64,000 nucleotides of DNA from the IMG/VR virus record IMGVR_UViG_3300022752_000053; one strand, written 5' to 3'. The translations under genes were made by a program, and so were the position numbers. Below, piece by piece: positions 829 to 34,981 of this stretch (within the stretch, counting starts at the first letter, position 1; the number at the start of each line of letters is the position of its first letter). The notes beneath the pieces are model-generated. The model searched no databases. It was not told the origin of the DNA and was given only the letters and a program-made list of their open reading frames with translations. The stretch comes from an uncultured virus (IMG/VR IMGVR_UViG_3300022752_000053) (taxonomy: Duplodnaviria; Heunggongvirae; Uroviricota; Caudoviricetes).

Positions 829-1479
829 ATGAAACTTATCAGAGAAGAAATCGAATCAGTAGAGTTTATCGTTGAAAGTCACAACGGTAAGAAATCACTT
901 TATATTGAAGGTGTTTTTCTTCAAGGTGATATTCGAAATCGTAATGGTCGTATGTATCCAATGGAAGTATTGCGTCGTGAAGTTTCTAGATATAATGAAA
1001 ATCATGTTCAATCTGGAAGAGCTCTTGGTGAGTTGGGTCATCCAGATGGTCCTACCGTCAATCTTGACCGAGTTTCCCATAAAATTGTTTCACTCAAAGA
1101 AAGTGGCACTAATTTTATTGGTAAGGCAAAGATTCTTTCAACACCAATGGGTAAGATTGCAGAATCACTTATCAATGATGGCGTAAAACTTGGTGTTTCT
1201 TCTCGTGGCATAGGATCTCTTCAACTTACTCGTGAAGGAATCAATGTTGTTGGTGAAGATTTTATGCTTGCAACTGCTGCAGATATTGTAGCAGACCCAT
1301 CTGCTCCTGATGCATTTGTATCGGGAATTATGGAAGGAAAAGAGTGGGTATGGGATGGTGGCATTCTCCGCGAGAAGTATGCATCCAAAACTTATGCAAG
1401 AATTAATACTCTTGTAACACAAAAGAAACTTGAAGAGAATAAATTGAATCTCTTCAACGATTTTCTCGCAAATCTTTAA
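829..1479 (+). CDS. gp21: Prohead core protease gp21
   Basis: NRNGRMYP, ALGELGHP, GVSSRGIGS, DIVADPSAPDA motifs of T4 gp21. Confidence 0.97.
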   Translation: MKLIREEIESVEFIVESHNGKKSLYIEGVFLQGDIRNRNGRMYPMEVLRREVSRYNENHVQSGRALGELGHPDGPTVNLDRVSHKIVSLKESGTNFIGKAKILSTPMGKIAESLINDGVKLGVSSRGIGSLQLTREGINVVGEDFMLATAADIVADPSAPDAFVSGIMEGKEWVWDGGILREKYASKTYARINTLVTQKKLEENKLNLFNDFLANL

Positions 1480-1527: not shown

Positions 1528-2682
1528 ATGTCTCGTGGAGATTTACAAGAAATGGAAGTAGGCACTAAGCAATCCAGAACTGCTGTGAATGCGAACGCTA
1601 AAGCGGCAGAACCAATGCCAAAACTTACTACTGGAGGCGCTGGTGTAAGTTGGGAAGACCTTGGAGGTCCTACCCCAGAAAATTATAAATCAGATGATGA
1701 TTCAGCAAAACTAAAAACCCCAGGTGCAACACTCAAGCAAGTCAGAGATGTTGTCAATAAAGGTGCCAAAGGTGCTGATGCAATGAAAGGTCTTAATAAA
1801 GAAGATTCTGATTATGATGAAGATGAATCTCTGTTAGCAGAAGAGGAAGAAGAAAAGGAAAATAGTAAAAAAGACCAAAAAGAAGATAAGAAGGAATATG
1901 GTAAAAAGAAACCTTCTAAATCTGAAGAAGATGATAAGGATGATGAAGATATGGAAGAAGAGTATGACATCGAAAGTGATGTCAATGCTCTAGTTGGTGG
2001 AGAAGATCTTTCAGAAGAATTTAGAGAAAAAGCAAAGACCATCTTTGAAGCTGCTCTAAAATCCAAAGTTAATGAAATTAAAGAAGCTCTTGAAATTCAA
2101 TATACTGAAAGACTTAATGAAGAAATTGAAGAAATTAAAGAAGAATTTCAGGATAGAGTTGATTCTTACTTAGAATATGTTTCTGAAGAGTGGGTAGAAG
2201 AGAATCAACTTGCCATCGAGCATGGTCTTAAGACTGAAATGACCGAATCATTCCTTCAAGGAATGAGAGGTCTTTTTGAAGCACATTATGTATCAATCCC
2301 TGAAGATAAATATGATGTCCTCAATAGTATGGTAAACAAACTTGATGAAATGGAAACAAAACTCAACGAACAAATTGAAAGAAATATTTCTCTGAATAAG
2401 AGACTGGCAGAATCAGTTGCTGATGGGATTGTAAGCGATGTTTCTGAGGGTCTAACGATTACTCAGAAAGAAAAACTCGCTTCTCTTGCTGAAAATGTTG
2501 AGTTTGAGGGTGAATCCGATTTTCGTGAAAAGGTTGAAACTCTGAAGGAATCTTATTTCCCAAGAGTGTCAAATCAAAACAGAAGTTCAGACAATTTAAA
2601 TGAAGGTGTAGAAAGCCATCCAGAATATACTGGAAGCATGGCAACATATTTAAATGCTCTGTCTGCTGTAGTTAAAAAATGA
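1528..2682 (+). CDS. gp22: Prohead core scaffold protein gp22
   Basis: Acidic coiled coil, AKTIFEAA and VDSYLEYV motifs; lies between gp21 and gp23. Confidence 0.93.
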   Translation: MSRGDLQEMEVGTKQSRTAVNANAKAAEPMPKLTTGGAGVSWEDLGGPTPENYKSDDDSAKLKTPGATLKQVRDVVNKGAKGADAMKGLNKEDSDYDEDESLLAEEEEEKENSKKDQKEDKKEYGKKKPSKSEEDDKDDEDMEEEYDIESDVNALVGGEDLSEEFREKAKTIFEAALKSKVNEIKEALEIQYTERLNEEIEEIKEEFQDRVDSYLEYVSEEWVEENQLAIEHGLKTEMTESFLQGMRGLFEAHYVSIPEDKYDVLNSMVNKLDEMETKLNEQIERNISLNKRLAESVADGIVSDVSEGLTITQKEKLASLAENVEFEGESDFREKVETLKESYFPRVSNQNRSSDNLNEGVESHPEYTGSMATYLNALSAVVKK

Positions 2683-2729: not shown

Positions 2730-4145
2730 ATGTTGGAAAACATTAATCAAATTCAAGAGAAGTGGAAGCCACTTCTAGATTATGATGGTCTCGATACAAT
2801 CAGAGATCCCCATCGTAGAGCAGTAACTGCTGCCCTTCTTGAAAACCAAGAAAAATTCCTCAAGGAAGAAAGAGCTTTCATGTATGAGTCTCCAGTGGGA
2901 CTCTATGAATCTCCAACCATGTCAGGTAATGCTGCTGGTGCTTCAGGTGGATTTAGTGGTTCAGCTGGTGCCACAGGTCCTGTTGCTGGTTTCGATCCAG
3001 TTTTGATTTCACTGATTAGACGCTCAATGCCTAATCTGGTTGCTTATGATCTTGCTGGTGTGCAACCAATGAATGGTCCTACTGGACTTATCTTTGCAAT
3101 GCGCTCTAGATACACCAACCAGTCTGGTTCTGAAGCATTTTTCAACGAAGTTGATACTGCATTCTCTGGCGAAAACGCATCATTCAGTGCAACTGCAGGT
3201 TTCTCTTCTGTTACCTCCGGTTTTGGTACTACTGCTCAACAAGGCACAAACCCTGGTCTTCTTAATCCAGAAGCAAGTCAGGCACAAAATACCTACTCTA
3301 CTGGTCAGGGTATGGTAACTGGTGACTCAGAAAACCTTGGCGTTGCTTCTGGTCCTCAGTTTAACGAAATGGCTTTCTCAATCGAGAAGGTTACTGTTAC
3401 TGCGAAGTCAAGAGCACTCAAGGCTGAGTATTCACTTGAGCTCGCACAAGACCTCAAGGCAATTCATGGTTTGAATGCTGAAGCGGAATTGGCAAACATT
3501 CTCTCAACAGAGATTCTTGCTGAAATCAACCGCGAAGTTATTCGTACCATCTATAAGGTTGCTGAATCTGGTGCTGCTGTTGGTACTGCCAACGCTGGCA
3601 CATTCGACCTCGATGTTGACTCCAACGGTCGTTGGTCAGTTGAGAAGTTCAAGGGTCTTCTTTTCCAAATCGAGCGTGATGCCAACGCAATCGCACAAAG
3701 AACTCGTAGAGGAAAGGGTAACATCATCATGTGCTCTGCTGACGTTGCTTCAGCATTGACCATGGCTGGTGTGCTTGACTACACCCCTGCACTCAACGCT
3801 AACCTCAACGTTGATGACACTGGCAATACTTTTGCTGGCACCATTAACGGCAAGTATCGCGTTTATATTGACCCATATGCTGCTAACGTAGCATCCACCC
3901 ACTACTATGTGGTTGGTTATAAGGGCACTTCACCTTATGACGCAGGTATCTTCTACTGCCCTTACATTCCTCTCCAAATGGTTCGTGCCGTTGGTGAAAA
4001 CACCTTCCAACCAAAAATCGGGTTTAAGACTCGTTATGGTATGGTTGCTAACCCATTTGCTGCTGGCACAACTCAGGGCATGGGTGGTCTGTATCCTAAT
4101 GCAAACCGTTACTACAGACGTGTTGCTGTTACCAACCTTATGTGA
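2730..4145 (+). CDS. gp23: Major capsid protein gp23
   Basis: GVQPMNGPTGLIFAMR, KSRALKAEYS, FQPKIGFKTRYG motifs. Confidence 0.99.
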   Translation: MLENINQIQEKWKPLLDYDGLDTIRDPHRRAVTAALLENQEKFLKEERAFMYESPVGLYESPTMSGNAAGASGGFSGSAGATGPVAGFDPVLISLIRRSMPNLVAYDLAGVQPMNGPTGLIFAMRSRYTNQSGSEAFFNEVDTAFSGENASFSATAGFSSVTSGFGTTAQQGTNPGLLNPEASQAQNTYSTGQGMVTGDSENLGVASGPQFNEMAFSIEKVTVTAKSRALKAEYSLELAQDLKAIHGLNAEAELANILSTEILAEINREVIRTIYKVAESGAAVGTANAGTFDLDVDSNGRWSVEKFKGLLFQIERDANAIAQRTRRGKGNIIMCSADVASALTMAGVLDYTPALNANLNVDDTGNTFAGTINGKYRVYIDPYAANVASTHYYVVGYKGTSPYDAGIFYCPYIPLQMVRAVGENTFQPKIGFKTRYGMVANPFAAGTTQGMGGLYPNANRYYRRVAVTNLM

Positions 4146-18639: not shown

Positions 18640-18985
18640 TTTCACCAAAGAAAATCTGATGGAAGATCCGTCAGTAAAAAAAGATTACGCACCTTATATT
18701 ATCAATCGTTGTTTGTCTGGACATATTGATTGTGTTTTATTTGCTAATGAAATGAATCTTAATCATTCTTTAGACAAAGATATGCAATATTCATTTTATC
18801 TAAATACTCTAAGGAAAAGGAAGAGATTTTCTCCCTGGCTCCGAAAGGATAAGGTCACAGATTTGGAATGTATAAAAAGTTACTATGGTTATAGTAATGA
18901 AAAAGCATCACAAGCTCTGAAAATTTTATCAAAAGATCAAATTAACTTTATTAAACAACGACTTGATATTGGAGGAAAACGATGA
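18602..18985 (+). CDS. gp62: Clamp loader small subunit gp62
   Basis: YAPYIINRCLS, RKRFSPW, YYGYSNEKA; directly upstream of regA. Confidence 0.92.
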   Translation: MTYELKDWLNSINFTKENLMEDPSVKKDYAPYIINRCLSGHIDCVLFANEMNLNHSLDKDMQYSFYLNTLRKRKRFSPWLRKDKVTDLECIKSYYGYSNEKASQALKILSKDQINFIKQRLDIGGKR

Positions 18986-19422
18986 CTTCTACTACAGTAG
19001 AACCAGTAGTAAAATGGTCACCCGATCAAATGGTGGAAATTGCTTTAAGTGAACCTGATGATTTTTTAAAGGTTCGTGAGACTTTAACTCGTATTGGAGT
19101 GGCATCTCGTAAGGAGAAAAAACTCTACCAATCTTGCCATATTCTACATAAGCAAGGTAGATATTATATTGTTCACTTTAAGGAATTGTTTGCCCTCGAT
19201 GGTAAACATGCAAATCTAACTGTGAATGATATTCAACGTAGAAATCGTATTGCAAGACTTCTTGTTGATTGGGGATTGATTGAAGTTAATAAACCAGAAT
19301 CAATTACTGACATCGCTCCTCTAAATCAAATTAAAGTAATTGCATATAAAGAAAAGAGTGAGTGGACCTTAGAAACCAAATATAATATTGGTAGAAAAGG
19401 TAAGGACCAGGAAACCGAATAA
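18982..19422 (+). CDS. regA: Translational repressor RegA
   Basis: DDFLKVRETLTRIG, LYQSCHILHKQGRYYIVHFKELF. Confidence 0.97.
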   Translation: MTSTTVEPVVKWSPDQMVEIALSEPDDFLKVRETLTRIGVASRKEKKLYQSCHILHKQGRYYIVHFKELFALDGKHANLTVNDIQRRNRIARLLVDWGLIEVNKPESITDIAPLNQIKVIAYKEKSEWTLETKYNIGRKGKDQETE

Positions 19423-19428
19423 AAATGG

Positions 19429-19454
19429 GCGGGAAACAACATCCCGCTTTTTTT
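19429..19454 (+). terminator. Intrinsic terminator after regA
   Basis: GCGGGA-loop-TCCCGC followed by a T-run. Confidence 0.75.
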
Positions 19455-19525
19455 ATGATCTCTTATAATTAGTAGTGGATGCCGAAAGGATCCAATCACT
19501 ACTAAGACGCTCATGGAGGTCTATT

Positions 19526-19972
19526 ATGTTCGGAACAAATGCACTTACACTTTCAGTACCAGAAACTGCAAAGTATTTGTTAGATATTCAAAAAAACAGT
19601 ATTGGAATGGATGAATGGTTTAAGAGGTTTGATACTACGTTTGAGACGCACACAAACTATCCACCATATAATCTTGTGAAAGAAGATAGTATTACTTTTA
19701 GATTGGAAATTGCTCTTGCTGGATTCAAGAGAGATGAAATTGAAGTTACTACTGAATGGAATAAACTTTTAGTAGAGGCAAAAAAATCTGATGATGTAGA
19801 TGAAGAATATTTACATCAGGGACTTGCCAAGAGAGCATTTACTCGCACCTGGACTTTATCTGATGATGTGGAAGTTAAGGATGTTGCTTTTGTTGATGGA
19901 TTACTCACTATCAAACTAAATAGAGTTATTCCAGAACATCAGAAGAAGAAGGTTTATGAAATCTTTCAGTAA
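19526..19972 (+). CDS. hsp20: Small heat-shock protein Hsp20
   Basis: NYPPYNL, LEIALAGF, AKRAFTRTWTL, DGLLTI; GGAGG RBS. Confidence 0.94.
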   Translation: MFGTNALTLSVPETAKYLLDIQKNSIGMDEWFKRFDTTFETHTNYPPYNLVKEDSITFRLEIALAGFKRDEIEVTTEWNKLLVEAKKSDDVDEEYLHQGLAKRAFTRTWTLSDDVEVKDVAFVDGLLTIKLNRVIPEHQKKKVYEIFQ

Positions 19973-31861: not shown

Positions 31862-31933
31862 TTGGGAGACTAAAACTGGGGTCTCCCTTTTTTATAAATA
31901 TTCTTAGGATAACCAAGTTATAGGAAAAAAAGA

Positions 31934-32962
31934 ATGGCACTCTGGGGTATTTCAACAAGTTCCGAAACCGTAGCAAATAATTTTGCAATTCCAAAGCATC
32001 TAAAGGACACTGACCGTAGAAATTCTCCATGGAATTGTTTTGCTGATTGTCGCGGTTGGATTTTGAGAAGATATGGAACTTCAGAAAATTCTGGATTATC
32101 AACCCAGTACTATGATGAAATTTTAGTGCCGGTGATTGGATTGAATACCACTTCTGGATCTGGGGGAACTGGTATTGGTACTGCTGGACCAATTGCTGTT
32201 TTCTTTGAAGACCCAAATTTATCATCAAAAATTTCTATTGGTGCTGGCGCCACTTCTGGAATTGGAACTGGTAGGACCGGATACATTCATGTTGTATTTA
32301 ATGAATTGGTATTTGCAAGTGCTGGTGCTACAGCATTAATTCGCACATATGATGCAGCAAATCTAACTCAGTCAACTTCAATAGTTGCAACTGCATCATC
32401 CAATAGAAGCACACAGTATGCTTGGTCAGCAACTGCTAGATCCCACGGATCTCCAGATACTTTTGTAAATTACAACGGGCAGATTTGCAATAGAGTAGCA
32501 TTTGCATTTACTGCACCAAATACTCTTTTAACTGCTGATGTTAATTTCTTAACCACAGCAGTAAGCGCAACTGGAGTTGGAATTGGTGCAACAATTATCT
32601 ATCTTGATTCTGTAACAAATGTCTCTGTTGGAAGCTCTCTTTCAGTCAGTGGTAAATTGGTTAAAGTGCCTGTGACTTCTATTGGAAGCACATTTGTTAC
32701 AATTGGTACCGCTTCTACAATTGGGACAACAATGAGTGCGGGTCTTGCTGCCACATTTAGCACTTTTACTACTGCTACGATTCTTAAAATTGACCACGCA
32801 GCTGGATTTGTTGGAGTGATTACTGATGGATCCAATGGTGTTGGAGTAATTAGTTCCTTTAGTCAACAGTTTGCTGGATATAGTCTTATTCGTAATGTTG
32901 GTGGTGCTGGAACTACCGGTGGTGTTGGTATTGGTACAACTACGTTAACAGTTAAAGCATAA
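31934..32962 (+). CDS. Probable virion structural/decoration protein
   Basis: MALWG start, Gly/Thr-rich with repeated GIGT, late promoter TATAAATA ~31893. Confidence 0.5.
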   Translation: MALWGISTSSETVANNFAIPKHLKDTDRRNSPWNCFADCRGWILRRYGTSENSGLSTQYYDEILVPVIGLNTTSGSGGTGIGTAGPIAVFFEDPNLSSKISIGAGATSGIGTGRTGYIHVVFNELVFASAGATALIRTYDAANLTQSTSIVATASSNRSTQYAWSATARSHGSPDTFVNYNGQICNRVAFAFTAPNTLLTADVNFLTTAVSATGVGIGATIIYLDSVTNVSVGSSLSVSGKLVKVPVTSIGSTFVTIGTASTIGTTMSAGLAATFSTFTTATILKIDHAAGFVGVITDGSNGVGVISSFSQQFAGYSLIRNVGGAGTTGGVGIGTTTLTVKA

Positions 32963-32966
32963 TTGA

Positions 32967-33353
32967 ATGATATTTACTGAATTGAATGACGAAAATTATA
33001 TGATGTTTGCTATACAAAATTATAGCAATCCACAGTCATCCACTAAAGATGACTTTCTTGACGATATGAAGAGGTTTAAGTATGTTAAACGTCTTCTGAG
33101 ACGATATAAAAAGACAGGAAATTTGAAATATAATTTAGTCATAAATCATTTTATTATTATATACAATGTATTTCAAGATGCAGCGACCCCTCTTCTTTTC
33201 TACAAAATAGATAAAGATTTGTGGTCAACTATGAAAAGTTTTATTTTATTTTTGAATAGAATTCCAGAATATCCAAAGTGCTATATTCATAATATACCAA
33301 TTGATGAAACATGTTACAATTCTCTACAATTAACCTATAATGAAAGAGAATAA
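32967..33353 (+). CDS. Hypothetical protein
   Basis: ELNDENYMMFAIQNYSNPQ..DMKRFKYVKRLL; 128-aa ORF in the late run before primase. Confidence 0.75.
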   Translation: MIFTELNDENYMMFAIQNYSNPQSSTKDDFLDDMKRFKYVKRLLRRYKKTGNLKYNLVINHFIIIYNVFQDAATPLLFYKIDKDLWSTMKSFILFLNRIPEYPKCYIHNIPIDETCYNSLQLTYNERE

Positions 33354-33582
33354 AATTAATAAAATTATTGATATACTTCGCAATCTGAATGAAGATGGTG
33401 GGCCCACAATGAGTGCTGGAACAGGTGGATTCACTTCATCTGCAAATGCAAAGGGACCAGTTGCCGGATTTGATACTGTAATGGGAATGACAAAAAGAAA
33501 ACCATCAAAATATGCAACAGGTGGAGTTGGATCACGTAGAAGATGGTTAGATTTTTTAAACTTAAAAAGTAAATCTAATTAA
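33340..33582 (+). CDS. Small protein containing a gp23 N-arm-like segment
   Basis: PTMSAGTGGFTSSANAKGPVAGFD resembles gp23 PTMSGNAAGASGGFSGSAGATGPVAGFD in this window. Confidence 0.7.
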   Translation: MKENKINKIIDILRNLNEDGGPTMSAGTGGFTSSANAKGPVAGFDTVMGMTKRKPSKYATGGVGSRRRWLDFLNLKSKSN

Positions 33583-33588
33583 AGAGCA

Positions 33589-34026
33589 ATGGAAGAAGGA
33601 ATTAGAGTTGCTGTTCTTGGTCAAAAATTAGAAGATTTGAAGCACATTGTTGAGAAAATTGATACTGCGATTGAAAAACTAAGTGAAATCAATACGAATG
33701 TAATTAAAATGTTAGCAGTTCACGAAGAAAAAATTGATAATCAGCAGAAGGTTGATGATTTGATTATCAAAATGATAGAAGATATGAAAGATGAAAATGA
33801 TAAAGAGCATAAAAGAACATTGGAAAGAGTTGAAGTAGTTGAGAATAAAGCAGAAGAATATAGTAGAGTTAAATGGATGACAATTGGTATTGGTGCATTT
33901 GGTGCAGTTATTGCCACTGTCGTGTCTACTTTGGTTGCACCCTGGTTGACACCAAGTGAAATGGGATATAAGATGGAACACAGATACGTTCCAAACAAAG
34001 AAAATATTCGTAATGGATCTAATTGA
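33589..34026 (+). CDS. Coiled-coil protein with a C-terminal transmembrane helix
   Basis: Heptad-rich region followed by WMTIGIGAFGAVIATVVSTLV. Confidence 0.65.
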   Translation: MEEGIRVAVLGQKLEDLKHIVEKIDTAIEKLSEINTNVIKMLAVHEEKIDNQQKVDDLIIKMIEDMKDENDKEHKRTLERVEVVENKAEEYSRVKWMTIGIGAFGAVIATVVSTLVAPWLTPSEMGYKMEHRYVPNKENIRNGSN

Positions 34027-34981
34027 TGTCAAATACATTAGCTTAATTTCTTCCCGACTTCAAAAATTTAAAAAGGTAAAGAATAATCTTTATAACTTTC
34101 GTTGCCCTATTTGTGGAGATTCTCAAAAAAATAAGAATAAGTTGAGGGGATATCTTTATCAGGTAAAAAATAATACAAATTATAAGTGTCATAATTGTGG
34201 TATTAACATATCATTTAATAATTTTCTCAAACAACTTGATATAGAAACTCATAAAAAATACATCTTTGAGAAATTTAAAGAAGGTTATACTGGTAAGAAT
34301 TTTACAGTAGAAGAACCCAAATTTGAATTTAAGGTTCCTGAGTTTAAATCAAAACTTGATTTGCCCAAAGCATCTGAAAATCCAAGTGCATCTGGATATT
34401 TGCAGGGTAGAAAACTGAATCCAGATAAATTTTATTATGCCGAAAAGTTTAAAGAGTGGACTAATTCTATTAAGCAAACTTTTGAGAATACAAAGTATGA
34501 CGAACCGAGGATTATCATTCCCATCTTCTATCAGAAATCTCTAGTAGGATTTCAAGGGAGAGCATTGGGTCCAAACAAGGTTAAATATATTACTGTGATG
34601 CTTTATGAAGATGCACCAAAAATCTATGGTCTTGATGAAATACAAAAGGACAAAACTGTATACATCACCGAAGGTCCCTTTGATTCAACATTTATTTCAA
34701 ACGCGATTGCTCTTTGCGGAGCTGACGGTGATGTTAATAAGTGGGGGATTAACAATCCTGTGTGGGTATATGATAACGAACCACGTAATTCAGAAATCCT
34801 ATCAAGAATTTCCCGTGTTATTGAAACTGGACAAAAAGTTGTCATCTGGCCTTCAAAAATAGAGGAAAAGGATATAAATGATATGATTCTTGCTGGACAA
34901 AATGTTCGGGAAGTGATAGAATTAAATACATATTCTGGTTTAGAAGCAAAACTAAAATTCACTATTTGGAAAAAAATATGA
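34013..34981 (+). CDS. gp61: DNA primase gp61
   Basis: Zinc finger CPICGDS..CHNC; TOPRIM EGPFDS, YDNEPRN, KDINDM. Confidence 0.95.
   Translation: MDLIDVKYISLISSRLQKFKKVKNNLYNFRCPICGDSQKNKNKLRGYLYQVKNNTNYKCHNCGINISFNNFLKQLDIETHKKYIFEKFKEGYTGKNFTVEEPKFEFKVPEFKSKLDLPKASENPSASGYLQGRKLNPDKFYYAEKFKEWTNSIKQTFENTKYDEPRIIIPIFYQKSLVGFQGRALGPNKVKYITVMLYEDAPKIYGLDEIQKDKTVYITEGPFDSTFISNAIALCGADGDVNKWGINNPVWVYDNEPRNSEILSRISRVIETGQKVVIWPSKIEEKDINDMILAGQNVREVIELNTYSGLEAKLKFTIWKKI

Follow-up and report, generated by a model that had tools for sequence, protein, structure and literature searches.

In phage T4, the major capsid protein gp23 is cut after residue 65 (PMC7136217), and the cleavage motif of the prohead protease gp21 is L/I-x-E (PMC9026906). 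The mature N-terminal region of gp23 is disordered and lies inside the unexpanded head (PMC9546572, PMC9958956), where it probably contacts the scaffolding core—a contact with gp22 has been proposed, and the head-length mutations A66D, A94V, and G97S map to this region (PMC9546572). On expansion the region moves out and becomes the N-arm and a 25-residue N-fist (PMC9546572, PMC9958956); the N-fist forms only then, and binds four subunits of two capsomers (PMC9958956, PMC9546572). Here we describe a small gene whose product carries a copy of this arm. The gene occupies positions 33340..33582 (+ strand) of a 64,000-nucleotide stretch of DNA from an uncultured virus (IMG/VR record IMGVR_UViG_3300022752_000053), and we refer to this whole stretch as the window. 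The gp23 of the window is 78% identical to that of Synechococcus phage RB11-B, and the source is a T4-like cyanophage or a close relative.

A second group of T4 head proteins provides the other point of comparison. The internal proteins IPI, IPII, IPIII, and Alt are small and mostly basic; they enter the prohead core and remain in the head, and gp21 removes their N-terminal leader after L/I-x-E (PMC9026906, PMC9958956). The sorting of proteins into the prohead core is still called mysterious (PMC9958956). Just one sorting signal has been defined so far, the 10-residue targeting sequence found in the internal proteins; a family that carries the capsid arm instead would indicate which partner keeps hold of the gp23 arm before expansion. 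An earlier note, made by a model from the letters of the window, had picked out the small gene as a carrier of this arm, and we have followed up its claims. Our main new result is that T4 gene 61.1 shares the design of the window gene. The reading we prefer, to which we give a probability of roughly 45%, is that the small protein is a head protein trimmed by gp21, with the arm copy serving as an address or a holdfast.

A copy of the gp23 arm in a small cyanophage gene

The small gene encodes 80 amino acids plus a stop. In a composition-adjusted BLASTP comparison, residues 22-48 of its product align with residues 62-92 of the window's own gp23, with 18 of 31 positions identical, one 4-residue gap, and an E-value of 6e-8, which confirms the central observation of the earlier note. 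The gp23 gene lies at 2730..4145 (+ strand; 471 amino acids) and its product matches Pfam Gp23 at 1.9e-150 and T4 gp23 structures at 3.9e-85. When gp23 residues 55-100 were searched by tblastn against all six frames of the 64-kb window, only 33403-33483, besides gp23 itself, gave a low E-value (4.5e-7); the remaining three matches ranged from 0.059 to 8.1. An L-x-E site stands immediately before the shared segment in both proteins, as the note had it—L-N-E in the small protein and L-Y-E in gp23, where the site and the copied segment together make up residues 58-92 (2901..3005, + strand)—and a basic tail does follow the copy in the small protein. Because the segment aligns to T4 gp23, and T4 gp23 is cut after residue 65, the shared segment corresponds to the mature N-terminus of gp23.

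The two segments have kept their residues but not their codons. The same codon is used at 6 of the 20 identical residues, and four-fold third positions agree in 4 of 15; with residues retained and synonymous sites scrambled, selection must work at the level of the protein, as had been proposed from the differing codons. These figures bear on one alternative, namely that the segment has no function and merely remains from a partial duplication of the 5' part of gene 23, or that a spurious ORF (open reading frame) matches gp23 by chance. The match does cover only 31 aligned residues, and Gly, Ala, Ser, and Thr are frequent in it; however, the E-value survives composition adjustment, the scrambled synonymous sites with retained residues do not suit a leftover, and, as described below, there are invariant columns across homologues, synteny across the fetched relatives, matches in hundreds of genomes, and virion peptides in S-SM1. 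Sequence, synteny, and virion data refute this alternative to our satisfaction, and we grant it next to no probability.

Three parts can be told apart in the small protein, all encoded on the + strand. Residues 1-18 (33340..33393) are a leader, predicted to form an amphipathic helix; the L-N-E at its end is a candidate site for cleavage by gp21. Residues 19-48 (33394..33483) hold the copy of the gp23 N-fist and the start of the N-arm, as found by BLASTP and tblastn against gp23, and residues 49-80 (33484..33579) comprise a basic linker and a C-terminal helix with a motif of the type G-S-R-R-x-W-L, common to the small protein, P0005, Bellamy, Sf-CH8, and the IMG/VR relative G004. An AlphaFold2 model (mean pLDDT 65) has a helix at 3-18 that stops exactly at L-N-E, coil at 19-62, and a second helix at 63-79; ESM Atlas returned unnamed viral clusters only, and its own model has a pLDDT of 0.38. 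A Pfam scan of the 80 residues found no family, the Gp23 capsid domain (PF07068, HK97-type fold) included, and a search of solved structures gave nothing meaningful, the best match being an unrelated enzyme at E 0.3. The arm is thus all that the small protein and the major capsid protein have in common. Two PHROG profiles were matched: phrog_3286, of short cyanophage forms, at 8.8e-8 (residues 1-58 on profile positions 1-54 of 64), and phrog_696 at 2.1e-11 (residues 21-58 on positions 5-42 of 263). The conserved C-terminal extension of phrog_696, at about positions 43-263, has no match in the small protein, which ends at residue 80. As a side observation, the start of the small gene overlaps the last 14 nt of the upstream DUF7207 gene (33340-33353) in a different frame, and the corresponding overlap in ACG-2014d is 4 nt; a start/end overlap of this kind would fit translational coupling.

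A tblastn search with the small protein returned 184 phage records, all from cyanophages or uncultured marine viruses, of which a few of the weakest (H112, H113, H119) fall on the gp23 gene itself; nine database proteins are homologous to it. The family is always placed just upstream of the primase gene. Among 19 fetched relatives, DUF7207 lies directly upstream in all save S-CAM9, where a 41-amino-acid ORF is annotated, and the downstream order, where the stretch is long enough, is DUF7201 and then primase, the latter annotated in 14 of the 19 stretches. Annotated homologues range from 61 to 286 amino acids, and what stays constant among them is the arm copy. In short forms (61-105 amino acids) a helical leader ending in (I/L/F)-x-E precedes the copy; long forms (122-286 amino acids) start with the copy itself, or with M-(I)-N-E and then the copy. 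Since either (L/I/F)-x-E precedes the copy or translation starts 0-4 residues away from it, the copy would come to lie at or near a free N-terminus, as in mature gp23.

An alignment of 10 short database homologues has 15 invariant columns within the copy (M24, A26, G27, T28, G29, G30, F31, S34, G39, P40, V41, A42, G43, F44, and D45), with variable leader and tail. The shared G-P-V-A-G-F-D, to which the earlier note had given particular weight, is therefore invariant in these ten; its loss is confined to a minority subgroup. In Bellamy (L017 901-1113) and two IMG/VR contigs (L146 1468-1695; L149 1480-1704) the copy is degenerate, with A-G-D-D-P-P-V in place of G-P-V-A-G-F-D, and this subgroup retains the leader with the x-E site, the opening residues of the copy, and, at the C-terminus, the G-S-R-R-x-W-L helix.

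RefSeq and PHROGs (phrog_696) name the long cyanophage members 'major head protein'; examples are gp159 of ACG-2014d (L001 3998-4825) and proteins of P-RSM6, P-SSM7, P-TIM40, and S-MbCM100. The 275-amino-acid ACG-2014d protein has no Pfam Gp23 match, and since it shares only the arm of about 30 residues with gp23, the label looks like an annotation artefact. This is a practical consequence of recognizing the family for what it shares with the capsid protein.

The copy also tracks the gp23 of its own phage. We scored every copy against every gp23 arm in 18 cyanophages plus the window; AG-345-E15, a 66-kb contig without gp23, was excluded. Over all 19, the summed score of own pairs lies 5.95 standard deviations (z) above permuted pairings, and none of 20,000 permutations reaches it. 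The gp23 arms of S-PRM1 and P-RSM6 are duplicates of the arms in S-CAM9 and P-TIM40; once S-PRM1 and P-RSM6 are taken out, 17 phages are left, with z 5.69 (again 0 of 20,000), and trimming the last 10 residues, so that only the variable part is scored, gives z 5.60. The covariation with gp23 that the earlier note had named as a check is thus present. A phage's own gp23 ranks first or tied first in 7 of the 17 and within the top four in 12 (fourth in the window), and in Sf-CH8, Syn9, P-TIM68, and S-CAM7 lineage-specific peculiarities are common to the copy and its own gp23. There are exceptions: in five of the 17 phages the copy departs from its own gp23 in the first half or more, and in S-SM1, P-SSM7, S-CAM22, and ACG-2014b the first half is of another type and the own gp23 ranks 10-17 of 17.

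Had the copies simply diverged on their own since an old duplication, no such excess of own pairs would arise; it therefore implies either co-evolution or gene conversion. Third-position identity at identical residues is 0.414 in own pairs vs 0.369 in pairs from different phages, and recent gene conversion is not supported as the cause of the tracking by this comparison. Old gene-conversion events may have contributed.

T4 gene 61.1 and its Straboviridae counterparts

A search of the T4 genome with T4 gp23 residues 66-105 gave one match beyond gp23, at E 3.1e-4: gene 61.1, a 54-amino-acid 'hypothetical protein' that abuts the primase gene 61 directly upstream. By BLASTP, T4 gp61.1 matches T4 gp23 at E 6e-9, with 17 of 37 residues identical over gp23 residues 57-93, and the E of its I-K-E aligns with gp23 residue 65, in register with the T4 cut. 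A Lys-rich tail follows the arm copy, and a search of solved structures with gp61.1 matched only gp23 chains. The first ten residues are 7/10 identical to the IPII/IPIII leader, that is, the capsid-targeting sequence. Positions 4, 7, 8, and 10 of this leader are decisive for targeting and processing (PMC9026906); in gp61.1 they are an aromatic residue, F, I, and E, and so conserved in kind.

The same kind of gene is found in four other Straboviridae, PVA23, P19, PSTCR6, and phiC120, among which are one Schizotequatrovirus, one Ceceduovirus, one Mosigvirus, and one unclassified Providencia phage. In all four, the ORF immediately before primase ends in L-x-E, the arm copy, and a Lys/Arg tract, with a domain of roughly 110 residues before the cut site. 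PHROGs places these four ORFs in phrog_2086 and the T4 short form in phrog_1823, both of unknown function. The 54 residues of T4 61.1 match only the last third of these ORFs of 145-160 amino acids, so T4 may have lost the N-terminal domain at the place where accessory genes now sit. A tblastn search with gp61.1 returned 1389 phage records; among the 30 of these that were inspected the matches are mostly 'hypothetical protein', and two fall on the capsid gene itself. In Rhizobium phage RL2RES, of the Pootjesviridae, the roughly 1.5 kb flanking the primase match on each side contain no arm copy.

The two families share a design rather than a detectable sequence. Mean arm scores are 64-80 against the gp23 of a copy's own family and 13 against that of the other (cyanophage or Straboviridae), and the window protein matched neither phrog_1823 nor phrog_2086 in the PHROG scan. 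For these reasons the window gene is the cyanophage counterpart of T4 gene 61.1 by position and design, and not a proven homologue. One candidate for a closer tie, that DUF7207 is a detached equivalent of the 110-residue N-terminal domain of phrog_2086, was rejected (hhalign probability 0.08%).

The surroundings of the T4 gene bear on another of the functions that the earlier note had offered, a decoy for a capsid-sensing defence. The defence would recognize the N-terminal segment of the capsid protein, and the decoy could stay free in the host cell or enter it together with the DNA. Directly upstream of 61.1 lies gene 61.2 (L054 2467-3259; T4 18966-19758), which is AdfA, the anti-DarT factor (PF23813, 1e-135), and dmd is nearby. 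The accessory genes around T4 61.1 thus include some already known to act in counter-defence; if the copy mimicked an epitope that is sensed, this would account for the gp23 tracking, and packaged proteins can be counter-defence factors, as IPI is (PMC9958956). The position of the gene, however, is kept across Kyanoviridae and Straboviridae, which is unusual for counter-defence genes, and the known sensed strip of T4 gp23, the Gol region, comes just after the copied part and not inside it. We take the Gol region to be about residues 94-122, and we know of no defence system that senses gp23 residues 66-93, nor did literature searches find one. We consider a decoy improbable.

A proposed role in the head

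The reading of the small protein as a gp21-trimmed head protein with an arm-copy address or holdfast builds on its similarity to gp23, the conservation and synteny of the gene, the tracking of gp23, the T4 counterpart with its targeting-type leader, and the detection of one long form in virions. In purified S-SM1 virions, T4-GC 426 was recorded with 17 peptide counts, compared with 18 for the portal, 22 for gp22, and 119 for gp23 (Table S8, PMC3037559); GenBank identifies T4-GC 426 as S-SM1_197, a 182-amino-acid gene at the small-gene locus and a long form. The short form of S-SCSM1 has the GenBank product name 'virion protein', and the paper of that record gives 45 proteins found by virion mass spectrometry; since the supplementary file of PMC9602691 does not name ORF97, the evidence from S-SCSM1 is that product name.

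From these observations we infer gp21 cleavage, packaging of the short form, a binding partner, and a role for the tail, as follows. The small protein would enter the prohead as a three-part precursor, with a helical leader, the arm copy of about 30 residues, and the basic tail. The protease gp21 (829..1479, + strand; Pfam Peptidase_S77, 9.4e-36), expected to be the enzyme that cuts both gp23 and the small protein, would cut after L-N-E and leave a product that begins like mature gp23. Processing by gp21, as the earlier note had proposed, is a prediction that finds indirect support in the presence of this gene, the recurring (L/I/F)-x-E, the T4 61.1 leader, and the homologues annotated or detected as virion proteins. 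The trimmed product would stay in the head, its arm copy held by the same partner that holds the arm of gp23 before the prohead expands; the gp22 core and the inner surface of the shell are the likeliest candidates. The scaffolding core protein gp22 (1528..2682, + strand; Pfam T4_CASP, 7.3e-79) is a candidate partner of the gp23 arm. The arm copy would then be a second kind of capsid-targeting signal with variable cargo: in the window a basic, probably DNA-facing tail and a short helix, and in other cyanophages an extension of 100-200 residues.

A number of points weigh against this reading. Tracking is not universal: the copy is degenerate in the Bellamy subgroup, and its first half departs from the phage's own gp23 in S-SM1, P-SSM7, S-CAM22, and ACG-2014b; within the five Straboviridae, own pairs barely exceed the others (69 vs 65). 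S-PM2 is listed as lacking T4-GC 426, and the annotated Syn9 homologue has no peptides recorded in virions (Table S8, PMC3037559). The leader of the window protein is unlike the T4 targeting sequence except in its helical character, its L-x-E, and its start, and because the long forms have no leader at all, the leader is not a general packaging signal. The case for placing this 80-residue form in the head draws on its homologues, and a basic peptide as short as this could be expelled after cleavage, as scaffold fragments are. T4 gene 61.1 stands among replication and accessory genes. Its neighbours are, we presume, early or middle genes, and literature searches for the function of 61.1, for a capsid-arm mimic, or for 61.1 as a head component found nothing.

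The virion counts can also be read as those of a surrogate arm in the finished shell. The trimmed copy would dock at lattice sites for which no gp23 N-fist is available, such as those next to the portal, with its basic tail extending to the DNA or portal; present in a few copies per particle, it would cement the shell or tie the DNA to it, much as the earlier note had it. The 17 peptide counts in S-SM1 are near what the portal and other low-copy proteins give; all forms retain a free N-terminus like that of gp23; a shared docking site predicts similarity and not complementarity, as is seen; and the T4 N-fist binds four subunits and forms on expansion (PMC9958956, PMC9546572). A complex prediction with two copies of gp23 93-471 and small-protein residues 19-80, given as alignments, returned a score of 0.02 (mark 0.32), which favours neither view; it used two gp23 copies, and the T4 N-fist site takes four subunits of two capsomers. 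Against a surrogate arm, the N-fist lies on the outer side of the expanded shell, whereas a DNA-binding tail belongs inside, and no empty N-fist site is reported in the parts of the T4 literature examined. An exact docking site should not tolerate the deviations from gp23 in 5 of 17 phages.

The vertices had been suggested as a further place for such docking, on the ground that gp24 is missing. No gp24 gene does follow gp23 in the window, where the next gene is tail-tube-like, and among the matches listed the cyanophages have one gp23-like place and most T4-type phages two, the second being gp24 in T4. The link to the missing gp24 nevertheless fails: T4 and the four other Straboviridae carry the same kind of gene, phages with gp24 therefore have it too, and its presence is independent of gp24. 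For T4, an unexplained helical density beneath gp24 has been mentioned (PMC9546572). On balance we regard a surrogate arm as unlikely.

The absence of peptides in Syn9 virions would be expected, in turn, of a transient regulator of assembly, whose copy competes with the gp23 arm for the core or portal, tunes nucleation, size, or the timing of expansion, and is afterwards cut and largely lost, as the T4 core proteins gp67 and gp68 are. The T4 length mutations lie within the copied segment and contact with gp22 has been proposed (PMC9546572). T4 gp67, of 80 amino acids, is linked to head size (PMC9026906) and is weakly like gp23 just before the same cut site (E 0.6). The homologue in S-SM1, however, is detected in mature virions, a C-terminal cargo that varies between 61 and 286 amino acids in total length suits a carrier more than a dedicated regulator, and gp67 is acidic and unrelated in sequence. 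We find such a regulator rather unlikely as well. A gp21-trimmed head protein with an arm-copy address or holdfast is the reading we retain.

In its broadest form, the proposal would be that T4-like phages from coliphage to marine cyanophage share an undescribed way of addressing proteins to the head, through an arm copy that is exposed by the protease, co-evolves with gp23, and loads or fixes a variable cargo. Since the T4 head-length mutations map to the copied segment, such a peptide could also help to set head geometry or trigger expansion. We hold this tentatively, and think it rather less probable than not. Should the arm copy turn out to act as a packaging signal, it might serve as a tag with which to load foreign proteins into heads of the T4 type. 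The single small gene 61.1 would make the question of prohead sorting testable in T4.

Gene neighbourhood and comparison with known systems

The small gene belongs to a cluster that may be transcribed late. A terminator-like hairpin at 31864-31887 plus a T run is followed by the T4 late-promoter consensus TATAAATA at 31893-31900 (together 31864..31900, + strand). The consensus stands 34 nt ahead of the first gene in the cluster, and between 31900 and 34100 the + strand has no terminator-like site. A late-promoter consensus heading the cluster in this way would count for a head protein; the frequency of the 8-mer in the window is not above chance (5 found vs 6.4 expected). A second exact TATAAATA lies at 1482-1489, 39 nt before the start codon of gp22, which would be in keeping with late transcription of head genes.

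The first gene of the cluster (31934..32962, + strand) encodes 342 amino acids rich in Ala, Gly, and Thr, and matches phrog_11617 at 1.2e-14. Relatives' genes at this position are labelled 'head protein', 'structural protein', or 'S-layer domain' (T4-GC 425), and T4-GC 425 is detected in S-SM1 virions. Next come the DUF7207 gene (32967..33353, + strand; PF23837, 4e-51), the small gene, and the DUF7201 gene (33589..34026, + strand; PF23831, 3.9e-33). The DUF7201 protein has a coiled coil and a hydrophobic C-terminal stretch, is called 'holin-like' in S-SCSM1, and weakly matches the head-scaffold profile phrog_206 (2.7e-4); the idea that it is the equivalent of the T4 head-assembly chaperone gp40 was rejected, the two having no similarity and belonging to different Pfam families. 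The downstream anchor of the locus is the DNA primase gp61 (33956..34981, + strand), which matches T4 gp61 by BLASTP with 36% identity over 339 residues (E 3e-60). At the other end of the window, a 185-amino-acid ORF rich in Ala, Thr, and Ser (270-827; DUF7243, 1.3e-20) lies directly before gp21, where T4 has genes 67 and 68.

T4 gp67 shares several features with the window protein: it has 80 amino acids, it is a small gp21 substrate of the head core, and it has a hint of gp23 likeness at the same cut site. This likeness (gp67, L003 2782-3024, vs residues 51-78 of gp23, L003 4946-6508) amounts to 11 of 28 identical residues at E 0.6, and is not significant. In contrast to the window protein, gp67 is acidic, has no arm copy, and is encoded between genes 20 and 68; our initial idea that it is a homologue of the small protein was rejected, gp67 being acidic and unrelated.

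The T4 internal proteins resemble the window protein in size, charge, and cleavage motif, although packaging and cleavage of the latter are predictions. Unlike it, they have no copy of the capsid arm. The 18-residue leader of the window protein is not similar in sequence to the IPII/IPIII leader, whereas that of T4 gp61.1 is (7/10), and the long cyanophage forms, unlike the internal proteins, have no leader.

The T4-GC 426 proteins of phrog_696 have the same locus and the same N-terminal arm copy, and T4-GC 426 was found in S-SM1 virions; they differ in their length of 122-286 amino acids and in a conserved C-terminal extension that the window protein lacks. T4 gp61.1 has the same design, for it too is encoded upstream of primase on the same strand and combines (L/I)-x-E, an in-register copy of its own gp23, and a basic tail. 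It has no detectable sequence homology to the window protein, and T4 61.1 abuts primase, whereas the cyanophages have the DUF7201 gene between the small gene and primase; the other Straboviridae differ further in the 110-residue domain before the cut site, which is unrelated to DUF7207.

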